A stretch of 53,144 nucleotides of DNA, taken from assembly GCA_035402825.1 (NCBI GenBank), contig DAONDZ010000006.1, forward strand, positions 1 to 53,144, in the 5' to 3' direction. Source of the stretch: a bacterium (GTDB lineage: Bacteria; Patescibacteriota; Patescibacteriia; Patescibacteriales; UBA12465). How positions within the stretch are numbered: position 1 is the first letter of the stretch; each line of letters begins with the position of its first letter. The translations under genes and the position numbers were made by a program. Positions 8,073-27,477 of this stretch are shown here, piece after piece. Below the pieces are notes generated by a model. It worked only from the letters and a program-made list of their open reading frames with translations, searched no databases and had not been told where the DNA came from.

Positions 8073-8501
8073 ATGAAAATAGTCATTTGCGGCAGTTCCA
8101 CCTTTAAAGAAAAAATGCTGGAGTACCGGGATAGATTGTCGGCCTTGGGTCATGAGCCGATAGTTCATCCGGATTACGAAGCTTTTGTTAAGGGCGAGAA
8201 ACAGGAAATTTGGGGGCAAGTCATGGCCGGAGAACATCATAAAGCTAAGCGAGAACAGGGATATATCAAATGGTATTATGACGCTATTTTTAACGGCGAT
8301 GCGGTTTTGATTTTAAATTTTGATAAGAAGGGGATTAAGAATTATATCGGCGGCAATACTTTAATGGAAATTAGTTTTGCCTATGTTAATGACAAAAAGA
8401 TTTTTTTGCTCAACCCTATCCCGGAAGAAGTGTCCTACGTTGATGAAATCAAGGCTATGGTGGATAACATTTTAGACGATGATTTGGATAAATTAATCTA
8501 A
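8073..8501 (+). CDS. nucleoside 2-deoxyribosyltransferase-like Rossmann protein (tentative)
   Basis: 142 aa. MKIVICGSS start, DAVLILN...YIGGNTLMEISFAY...KKIFLL pattern resembling the Nuc_deoxyrib_tr-like fold. ATG lies 1 nt after the NUDIX stop. Confidence 0.4.
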   Translation: MKIVICGSSTFKEKMLEYRDRLSALGHEPIVHPDYEAFVKGEKQEIWGQVMAGEHHKAKREQGYIKWYYDAIFNGDAVLILNFDKKGIKNYIGGNTLMEISFAYVNDKKIFLLNPIPEEVSYVDEIKAMVDNILDDDLDKLI

Positions 8502-8521
8502 TTTGACTTAAATTATTTAAA

Positions 8522-8550
8522 TTGACAAAAATATAGCTTCATGCTATATT
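8522..8550 (+). promoter_or_regulatory. sigma70-type promoter with extended -10
   Basis: TTGACA (8522-8527), 17-nt spacer ending TGc, TATATT (8545-8550). The spacer contains ATATAGC ttcat GCTATAT. Confidence 0.55.
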
Positions 8551-8600
8551 TTTCTGTTATTTAGCTCATTCACAAAGATTATTAACCAAAACCGCCTGCC

Positions 8601-9461
8601 ATGGATGCAAAAGAAATCAGGGAAGAGTTCTATGGAAATATTTTTCCCGACCTAGCCCGAATTTGCCAGCTTCGCCCGGCGCTTTGGCCGGTGAGTTATT
8701 ATCAAGAAAGATTTAAGGATTTGCAAAAATTGGGTTTTTCTAACCCCAAAAAAATGATTGTGTCTTTTCCGTCTTTGCTCAGTTATTCTATTATGAATAT
8801 TGATCAAAAGATCAAAGACTTACGCAGTCTGGGGTTTAAGAATCCAATTAAGATTATCACTTCCTGTCCCTCGCTTTTCGGCAGTTCTCTGAGCAATCTC
8901 AAAGTGAAGATTGCCGAGTTGGAAAAACTGGGTTTTAAGAATCCGATTAAGATTATCACCTCATTTCCGCCCACTTTGCTTTTGGCCACGGAAAACGTGG
9001 CTCAGAAAATTGAAGATTTGCAGGCCTTGGGATTCGCTAATCCGCAGAAATTAATCAATTCTTTGCCGGCTATCTTGGGGTTAAGCGTCCAGAATATCAA
9101 AAGCAAAATTGATAATCTGAGCGCCTTAGGATTTGTTAATCCTAATCAGATGATTATTTCCTTGCCGGCCCTGCTTAGCTATTCAGTAGATAGTATTAAA
9201 ATTAAGCTTAGTTTCTATTGCCGAGTGTTAAAAGGATCGGCTGTCAATTACCTGGAAATAGCAGAGCGTTATCCGATTAGCTTAGGATTCGCTCAAGCCA
9301 GGATTTCGTTGGTCATGCGTATCTTATATGACCAAAAAATTCCTCTTACCGGCGCCAAGCTATTCGCGCGGCTTTCCGACCCCCAGAGATACGTGGCGGC
9401 TGAGGATTTAATCAAATATCCAAAGCTGAAACGGCTCTATCAGTTATATTATGATAAATAG
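8601..9461 (+). CDS. mTERF-like helical repeat protein
   Basis: 286 aa. Five tandem 33-aa units with consensus LGFxNPxKxIxSxPxLLxxSxxNIxxKIxxL, plus degenerate flanking units. No signal peptide or TM. Has its own promoter and terminator. Confidence 0.6.
   Translation: MDAKEIREEFYGNIFPDLARICQLRPALWPVSYYQERFKDLQKLGFSNPKKMIVSFPSLLSYSIMNIDQKIKDLRSLGFKNPIKIITSCPSLFGSSLSNLKVKIAELEKLGFKNPIKIITSFPPTLLLATENVAQKIEDLQALGFANPQKLINSLPAILGLSVQNIKSKIDNLSALGFVNPNQMIISLPALLSYSVDSIKIKLSFYCRVLKGSAVNYLEIAERYPISLGFAQARISLVMRILYDQKIPLTGAKLFARLSDPQRYVAAEDLIKYPKLKRLYQLYYDK
8730..9224 (+). repeat. in-frame 99-bp tandem repeat (5 units) encoding the 33-aa helical repeats
   Basis: Units starting near 8829 and 8928 are nearly identical at the DNA level (ctggggtttaagaatccaattaagattatcac vs ctgggttttaagaatccgattaagattatcac). 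The period is 99 nt. Confidence 0.8.
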
Positions 9462-9475
9462 TTTTATTACCCTGT

Positions 9476-9507
9476 GGGCAATCAATTGATTGCCCGCTTT
9501 TATTTTT
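9476..9507. terminator. palindromic terminator between convergent genes
   Basis: Perfect 20-nt palindrome gggcaatcaattgattgccc followed by gcttttattttt. The T tract overlaps the glgP stop codon. Confidence 0.65.
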
Positions 9508-26745: not shown

Positions 26746-27477
26746 TTATTCCGTAGCTTGATGCTCTAAAAGCATTTTCTCTATTTCTGGATAGCCATTA
26801 GAGCGAGCGATGTTTAAAGCGGTGGTGCGATAGTTGTTTTTGGCATTAACATCAGCCCCGGCTTCTACCAACAACTTGGCAATGTCGGTATGACCGTCTT
26901 GAACGGCCTTGATTAAGGCAGTGGAACCATTTTGAGACTCAGTATTAATATCAGCTCCTAGTTTAATTAAGCTGGCCACTGTTTCTAAATGTCCATTGCG
27001 AGCGGCAGCCATGAGGGGTGTAATGCCTTTACGGCCACGGCCATTAACATCCACTCCTTTGTTTACTAATATTTCCACTATCGCGGTATGGCCGTTTTGA
27101 GCGGCAAAAACTAAAGCATTATGAGCGGCAAAGATGGAAGAGAAGTTGGCATGACCATTTTCGGCCAAGATAACTCCTTTTTCGATTAGCAGTTCAATGA
27201 TATCTTGACGACCGCTCCAGGCGGCATACATCAAAGCGTTAAAGCCATGGAAGTTCTTGAGGTTAACATCAGCGCCTTTCTCAATTAAGTATTTGGCAGT
27301 CTCGTAATGTCCATCCCGAGCGGCAATCATTAAGGCGGTTAATCCTTCATTATCATTCTGGTTGATGTCAGCACCATTAGCCATTTCTTTTTGGACAGCG
27401 GACAGATTATCGGAGCGTACCGCTTCCAAGAAGGGCGAGAGAATGTTCAGATTGTTTTCTCCGTTAGTTTTAGGCAT
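26746..27477 (-). CDS. ankyrin repeat protein (about 6-7 ANK repeats)
   Basis: 243 aa. Repeated G-x-TALM-x-AA-x-xGH-x-E/D-x-x-x-LI-x-xGADVN units. No signal peptide. ATG lies 1 nt after the upstream receiver stop. Confidence 0.9.
   Translation of the reverse strand: MPKTNGENNLNILSPFLEAVRSDNLSAVQKEMANGADINQNDNEGLTALMIAARDGHYETAKYLIEKGADVNLKNFHGFNALMYAAWSGRQDIIELLIEKGVILAENGHANFSSIFAAHNALVFAAQNGHTAIVEILVNKGVDVNGRGRKGITPLMAAARNGHLETVASLIKLGADINTESQNGSTALIKAVQDGHTDIAKLLVEAGADVNAKNNYRTTALNIARSNGYPEIEKMLLEHQATE

Follow-up and report, generated by a model that had tools for sequence, protein, structure and literature searches.

An mTERF-fold tandem repeat protein of a rare 33-residue subfamily encoded by an ultrasmall CPR-type bacterium

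The locus and its host genome

The window analyzed here (the whole stretch of DNA, 53,144 nucleotides) carries at 8601..9461, on the forward strand, the coding sequence of a 286-aa mTERF-fold repeat protein, called P0001 below. The frame begins with ATG and is the sole long one there. The gap to the upstream gene measures 99 bp, and that to a convergent glycogen-phosphorylase-like (glgP-like) gene 38 bp. The upstream gap holds a predicted sigma-70-type promoter-like site (8522..8550, forward strand; TTGACA, 17 nt, TG-extended TATATT; 11 of 12 matches), which lies 50 nt 5' of the ATG and is identical across five metagenome contigs. The downstream gap holds an intrinsic-terminator-like hairpin followed by TTTTATTTTT (9474..9507, forward strand). 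In the hairpin itself (9474-9497), 6 of the 10 stem pairs are GC, the perfect 20-nt palindrome GGGCAATCAATTGATTGCCC is part of the stem, and the folding energy is -18.3 kcal/mol (z -3.5). No obvious Shine-Dalgarno sequence was seen upstream of the ATG. The first-pass annotation had described a stand-alone transcription unit with a near-consensus promoter (TTGACA-17-TGcTATATT) and a perfect palindromic terminator, and this description is borne out by the gaps, the promoter-like site with its TG, the hairpin, and the convergent neighbor. Judged from these sequence signals, the gene appears to form a monocistronic unit driven by its own predicted promoter.

Just upstream of the gene are also two copies of a 19-bp direct repeat, TAAATTATCTAAATTGACT, at 8489-8532. 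Each copy has a TTGAC box, giving two alternative -35-like elements, at 8503 and 8522. A palindrome, ATAGCTTCATGCTAT, lies within the spacer and -10 region of the promoter-like site.

P0001 is a soluble and basic protein (pI 9.64, net charge +16). No signal peptide was found, nor any hydrophobic segment, the maximal 19-residue Kyte-Doolittle mean being 1.15, in agreement with the earlier view of a cytoplasmic protein lacking a signal peptide and a TM helix.

The source assembly comprises 851,095 bases (0.85 Mb) in 9 contigs and is 97.6% complete; every genome sampled from the host phylum is about 0.6-1.4 Mb, a size range that fits the ultrasmall CPR/Patescibacteria. The host is an ultrasmall CPR-type (CPR/Patescibacteria) bacterium and the P0001 gene is chromosomal. 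On its 53-kb contig the gene lies among bacterial genes, its neighbors encoding spermidine-synthase-like, C39-like peptidase and NUDIX proteins, a 142-aa protein without a Pfam match, the glycogen-phosphorylase-like protein, a flavodoxin, a PAS sensor, and an HI0933-like flavoprotein. The GC content is 41.0% for the gene and 41.6% for the window. The exact P0001 protein is present in the same context on 13 metagenome contigs from several samples, and over 8502-9499 the DNA is 100% identical in the five metagenome contigs compared. The DNA runs containing the locus are activated-sludge metagenomes. PADLOC gave no match for P0001 or its two upstream neighbors, and on this basis a role as a defense-system component was rejected. 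Elsewhere in the window (26746-27477, minus strand) there is a gene for a 243-aa protein that consists almost wholly of ankyrin repeats (Ank_2, 171.7 bits, three stretches).

Repeat architecture and fold

The center of P0001 is an array of five canonical 33-aa units (8730..9224, forward strand; residues 44-208) of the form LGFxNPxKxIxSxPxLLxxSxxNIxxKIxxLxx. The LGF that opens each unit is found at residues 44, 77, 110, 143, and 176, a spacing of exactly 33 aa (99 bp). When the protein is scored against itself with BLOSUM62, the self-similarity is 196 for lag 33 and harmonics follow at 66 and 99; in 1000 shuffles the best lag averaged -99.5 (sd 14), which places lag 33 at a z of about 21. Any two of the five units share only 30-52% of their residues and 41-59% of their nucleotides, and Tandem Repeats Finder detects no DNA array of 99-bp period in the gene. 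The first-pass annotation had spoken of five near-perfect tandem copies; the five units, the 99-bp period and the span stand, whereas the near-perfection does not. A recent expansion at the DNA level was rejected for the same reasons. Since the units are diverged and form no detectable DNA array while the lag-33 register is exact, the array is best seen as old and diverged, with only its register perfect.

An AlphaFold2 model of P0001, built from a 50-sequence alignment, has a mean pLDDT of 97 and a pTM of 0.88, and folds into about eight three-helix modules. Each canonical unit is modeled as three helices, the first short, the second very short, and the third long. Ahead of the array is an N-terminal cap with one degenerate mTERF-like unit (8601..8729, forward strand; residues 1-43), for which DSSP on the model gives helices at residues 3-14, 18-24, and 31-43, partly in the canonical motif register. 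Behind the array is a C-terminal cap with two degenerate helical units, ending …IKYPKLKRLYQLYYDK (9225..9458, forward strand; residues 209-286), modeled at pLDDT 93-98. The degenerate three-helix units on either side of the canonical five agree with the degenerate flanking copies that had been proposed from the sequence. Column counts from 29 units of the subfamily described below give L1 G2 F3 x N/D5 P6 x K8 M/I9 I10 ... P14 x I16 L17 G18 x S20 .. N23 I24 .. K27 I28 .. L31, in accord with the LGF-x-NP consensus drawn up earlier. Variation between the units of P0001 is spread over about a dozen positions and does not resemble a two-residue code; positions 4, 7, 11-13, 22, 25-26, and 29-30 of the 33-aa unit vary and are candidates for base contacts.

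The family assignment rests on agreement among profile, motif, and fold. The Pfam mTERF profile (PF02536), proposed at the outset as a check, matches P0001 in two stretches with an E of 4.1e-20 and 72.4 bits, far over the gathering score of 23.1, and a six-frame search of the genome with this profile found the P0001 locus as its single match. The canonical mTERF motif, about 30 aa long, has its Pro at position 8 and a hydrophobic residue at each of positions 11, 18, and 25 (after Roberti et al. 2009, quoted in PMC11417379). This pattern is present in all five central units and partly in the three flanking ones. In a Foldseek comparison of the model with the PDB, the other check proposed, ranks 1-19 are all mTERF-family proteins and the designed helical repeats that come next have non-significant scores. 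The mTERF matches are MTERF3, MTERF1, the MTERF4-NSUN4 complex, and mitoribosomal mTERFs of Tetrahymena, Chlamydomonas, and Polytomella. The best fold match is MTERF3 (query-normalized TM score, TMq, 0.60; E 2.6e-5), and DNA-bound full-length MTERF1 gives a TMq of 0.57-0.61. The closest solved structures by sequence are human MTERF1 and MTERF3, at E about 5e-3; identity to solved eukaryotic mTERFs is 18-20%. Other alpha-solenoid classes, a better fit to which had been named as grounds for giving up the assignment, were ruled out: TPR, Sel1, HEAT, and PUF are absent from the Pfam results at E <= 10 and from all 33 PDB fold matches. P0001 is a genuine mTERF-fold helical repeat protein, and the central call of the first-pass annotation is upheld by Pfam, the AlphaFold2 model, and Foldseek.

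P0001 has its fold and motif in common with the organellar mTERFs of eukaryotes (PF02536; human MTERF1-4 and plant mTERFs), and the model superposes on MTERF1, MTERF3, and MTERF4. However, P0001 is bacterial and has no targeting peptide, whereas the eukaryotic proteins are nuclear-encoded and imported into mitochondria or plastids. Import into organelles characterizes the members known so far, but the Pfam definition does not require it. The arrangement of units also differs: those of P0001 are strictly tandem and of equal length, while those of eukaryotic mTERFs are interspersed and irregular. The TALE-like proteins (TALE, BurrH/Bat, STAR), with tandem units of about 33 aa that form a DNA-wrapping superhelix, offer a working analogy for recognition at one unit per step. 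They match P0001 in neither sequence nor fold, are absent from its Pfam and PDB matches, and vary between units at two RVD-like positions, unlike the dozen or so in P0001.

Relatives, distribution, and mobility

An exhaustive phmmer search of 1.84 billion cluster representatives (clusters at 50% identity) found 867 clusters related to P0001 at E <= 1e-3, 350 at E <= 1e-10, and 49 at E <= 1e-30. Other searches returned far less. A word-indexed search gave only five other proteins against the 867 clusters of phmmer; a search of genome contigs with a three-sequence alignment gave no more than three loci, the reach of the method being set by its search patterns; and a single-protein query of genome contigs gave no match. 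The closest relatives (the 49 clusters at E <= 1e-30) are tandem-repeat proteins. Look-ups of the relatives' clusters returned "hypothetical protein" or nothing. Grouping the best 150 of the 867 clusters by repeat period and C-terminal motif distinguishes at least five architectural groups: A, that of P0001 (33 aa, …YPKLxxxYxxY, 8 clusters), B (33 aa, …RYFRGYP, 33 clusters), C (35 aa, …KYNYxEY, 18 clusters), D (32 aa, GxMYLxY, 8 clusters), and E (34 aa, NWxWIF, 6 clusters). Representatives of every group tested pass the Pfam mTERF profile, at 71-157 bits.

Group A is a subfamily marked, at the level of sequence, by 33-aa LGFxNP units and a …YPKLKxxYxxYY C-terminal cap, the latter being its signature. 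In BLASTP with the cap alone (residues 205-286) against about 155 relatives, the only proteins to match were P0002, P0024, P0067, P0020, P0017, P0014, P0021, and the one from genome G033 (contig L008). All nine subfamily members are basic (pI 9.5-10.3). The neighborhoods inspected among relatives are prokaryotic or phage-like with uninterrupted ORFs in all 11 cases. Among the subfamily members inspected there is no conserved gene neighborhood or partner gene, and contexts differ. L008 (CAZSRC010000016.1), titled "uncultured Gammaproteobacteria" at NCBI, is the same contig as C16 of G033 and carries the same mTERF-like ORF; since G033 is 0.7 Mb and falls in the GTDB family of the window genome, the gammaproteobacterial label is probably wrong.

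On a contig labeled "MAG: bacterium DBS1-2.bin54" (L007, 5138-9730), a relative of 518 aa contains twelve units of 33 aa. After it come a YgjP-like metallopeptidase and a protein of 712 aa, the latter with many leucine-rich-type repeats of about 22 residues and no Pfam match. On a metagenome contig (L045, 776-9294), a protein of 2097 aa that consists for the most part of mTERF units (eight matched stretches) comes directly after a 741-aa mTERF protein, with a Fic-domain gene close by.

The possibility had been raised that P0001 represents an unrecognized prokaryotic branch of a family usually regarded as eukaryotic. This has been overtaken by pTERF, described by its authors as the first class of distant prokaryotic mTERF homologues (Nucleic Acids Res 2024;52:10464; PMC11417379). 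The pTERF homologues are mostly from Bacillota MAGs and have tandem units. pTERF1 (MBQ3414883.1), from a ruminant-gut Clostridia MAG, binds ACTNNNAGTC with a Kd of 1.9 nM, and pTERF2 binds a different motif, both being specific for dsDNA with nanomolar Kd (PMC11417379). The cluster label of pTERF1, TR_35_C32_2 (PMC11417379), apparently denotes a 35-aa period, which fits group C. P0001 matches this 35-aa Bacillota-type group with a phmmer E of 1.7e-22 (P0005) and a pairwise BLASTP E of 7e-16 (P0153). The alignment with P0153 covers the repeats and the start of the cap, with a 2-residue gap per unit where LGFKNP stands against LGYKKEEA. More generally, proteins of 35-aa period in Firmicutes-style contexts match P0001 at E 1e-16 to 1e-22, and these we take to be the same as the published pTERF. 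One such pTERF-type protein, of 481 aa and from a cluster of 777 member sequences, is encoded in an apparent operon (L042, 799-5822), where it is preceded by a sigma-70-type factor and two genes without a Pfam match and followed by an overlapping 130-aa mini-mTERF partner.

P0001 and pTERF are alike in being prokaryote-encoded, in consisting of uninterrupted tandem mTERF-like three-helix units, and in matching the Pfam mTERF profile. They differ in unit length (exactly 33 aa with an LGFxNP turn in P0001, apparently 35 aa in pTERF), in the C-terminal cap, and in host, an ultrasmall CPR-type bacterium for P0001 and Bacillota for pTERF. P0001 keeps Pro8 and the hydrophobic residues at 11, 18, and 25, whereas pTERF1 is stated by its authors to lack the canonical Pro8 and leucine pattern (PMC11417379). 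The P0001 gene stands alone, in contrast to that of P0153, which is in an operon with a sigma factor and a mini-mTERF. P0001 belongs to the broad prokaryotic mTERF-like (pTERF-like) kind, in which it is a member of a distinct, rare subfamily, from another phylum and closer to the canonical motif. Its novelty is limited because pTERF was described in 2024 and Pfam already recognizes these proteins.

The rarity is evident in genome surveys. The Pfam mTERF profile exceeds its cut-off in 3 of the 61 nearest relatives and in 2 of 401 genomes of the phylum; the family profile A3 (E <= 1e-5) finds matches in 2 of the 148 genomes of the GTDB family (16 genera) and in 3 of the 401. G033, from the same GTDB family, has an orthologue of 41% identity that shares the cap; the locus is an unrelated one, and glgP of G033 has other neighbors. 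In a genome of the same genus, G001, glgP is directly convergent with another gene, NUDIX adjoins, and no mTERF gene lies between NUDIX and glgP. The synteny is loose, glgP being 47% and NUDIX 29% identical to the window's, and the gene in between unrelated to that found in the window between NUDIX and P0001, so that absence from the syntenic site is only moderately supported. The intervening gene of G001 (L032, 4983-6209, minus strand) encodes a 408-aa protein in which an ArsM/UbiE-type methyltransferase is fused to a nucleoside 2-deoxyribosyltransferase-like domain; the corresponding slot of the window is occupied by the unrelated 142-aa protein mentioned earlier. The sporadic presence, the absence from G001, and the different locus in G033 indicate an accessory gene that was gained or is often lost. 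For the host organism, P0001 is probably a dispensable factor of this accessory kind.

Carriage of the P0001 subfamily by phages or plasmids was considered and rejected. A tblastn search of 50,697 phage and 72,556 plasmid records found no match for the subfamily, a BFVD fold search found none for P0001, and the PHROG matches to P0001 are single-unit noise. Scanning IMG/VR brought up only a short, different, alphaproteobacterial mTERF-like form. This form (LGFENPVKMI…; 216 aa, 2-3 units, P0004 among its relatives) occurs on contigs of high GC content that IMG/VR lists as viral. In one case (L009, 1291-1941, on a contig shared with L050, IMGVR_UViG_2710723594_000007) it adjoins an ERF-family annealing protein and a YqaJ exonuclease. 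In another (L049, 1-342) it is beside a 680-aa ORF that by eye is cytosine methyltransferase-like. From its presence on viral contigs near ERF and YqaJ, this branch appears to be phage- or prophage-carried.

Function and origin

By analogy with its relatives, P0001 is probably a nucleic-acid binder, for which its basic charge, kept across the subfamily, is indirect support. The explanation that we favor, and hold to be fairly probable taken whole, is that it is a basic, mTERF-fold, pTERF-like solenoid, probably a sequence-specific dsDNA binder, serving as an accessory regulator or roadblock. The positively charged concave face would be laid along double-stranded DNA, as in human MTERF1, pTERF1, and pTERF2, and would recognize a short specific sequence. 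The DNA-bound protein could then be an accessory, non-essential regulator or a transcription roadblock in its CPR host. The link to the assayed pTERFs runs through the 35-aa Bacillota-type relatives, which are presumed to be of the pTERF family.

The fold does not separate binding to DNA from binding to RNA, since MTERF3 and MTERF4, which are RNA or ribosome-assembly binders, match the model as well as MTERF1 does. P0001 might accordingly be an RNA-binding or ribosome-biogenesis factor acting on rRNA or other structured RNA, like MTERF3, MTERF4, and several plant mTERFs. That MTERF3 is the best fold match, and that MTERF4 from mitoribosome assembly intermediates and mitoribosomal mTERFs are among the matches, speaks for such a role, as does the location of one subfamily member just after secE-nusG-rplK-rplA and of another (in G033) about 3.7 kb upstream of rplJ-rplL. 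However, a core role in ribosome assembly is hard to square with a gene found in 2 of the 148 genomes of the family and 3 of the 401 of the phylum, no ribosomal genes are close to the P0001 gene in the window, and the sole assayed prokaryotic relatives bind dsDNA (PMC11417379). We regard an RNA role as unlikely. Still less probable is a protein-binding scaffold or adaptor that works through the solenoid and the aromatic C-terminal cap and has no role with nucleic acids. Alpha-solenoids are often protein binders, MTERF4 is an adaptor for NSUN4 (PDB 4fp9), and the conserved aromatic motifs at the C terminus, a different one in each bacterial subfamily (YPKLxxxYxxY, RYFRGYP, KYNY, GxMYLxY), could be docking sites. 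Against a scaffold stand the strongly basic charge kept across the subfamily and the lack of a conserved partner gene beside the members inspected.

The other reading of the first-pass annotation was of an acquired, eukaryote-like protein, which in its strong form would be an effector taken over recently from a eukaryote. It draws on the family being best known from eukaryotic organelles and on the ankyrin-repeat gene of the window. That gene is genuine, but since 5 of 14 ordinary control bacterial genomes also contain ankyrin repeats, its presence says nothing for capture of a eukaryotic gene. Among the relatives, the nearest are tandem-repeat proteins, every sampled neighborhood is bacterial or phage-like, the solved eukaryotic mTERFs are distant, the GC content of the gene is that of the window, and a signal peptide is lacking. 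Recent capture from a eukaryote is thus disfavored, and we consider it highly improbable.

A reverse direction of descent can be imagined. Phage ancestry has been proposed for the mitochondrial RNA polymerase and Twinkle, and would offer a parallel for the origin of organellar mTERFs. The 33-aa LGFxNP-type proteins of bacteria, including the CPR subfamily and the short alphaproteobacterial phage or prophage form near ERF/YqaJ, might be part of a prokaryotic and phage gene pool ancestral to the organellar mTERFs, and might serve bacteria as DNA roadblocks, programmable by sequence, at which transcription is terminated or blocked. We put this forward as a speculation with a small chance of being right.

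P0001 extends the bacterial mTERF-like proteins, first reported in 2024, by a lineage from the CPR/Patescibacteria and by a distinct subfamily with 33-aa units. Judged by its motif, its fold, and the Pfam profile, the bacterial mTERF-like family extends well beyond Bacillota. Because its units are strictly regular and keep the canonical motif, P0001 would make a clean model for how an mTERF unit reads nucleic acid, and its subfamily could be used in a proper phylogeny of the origins of eukaryotic mTERFs.
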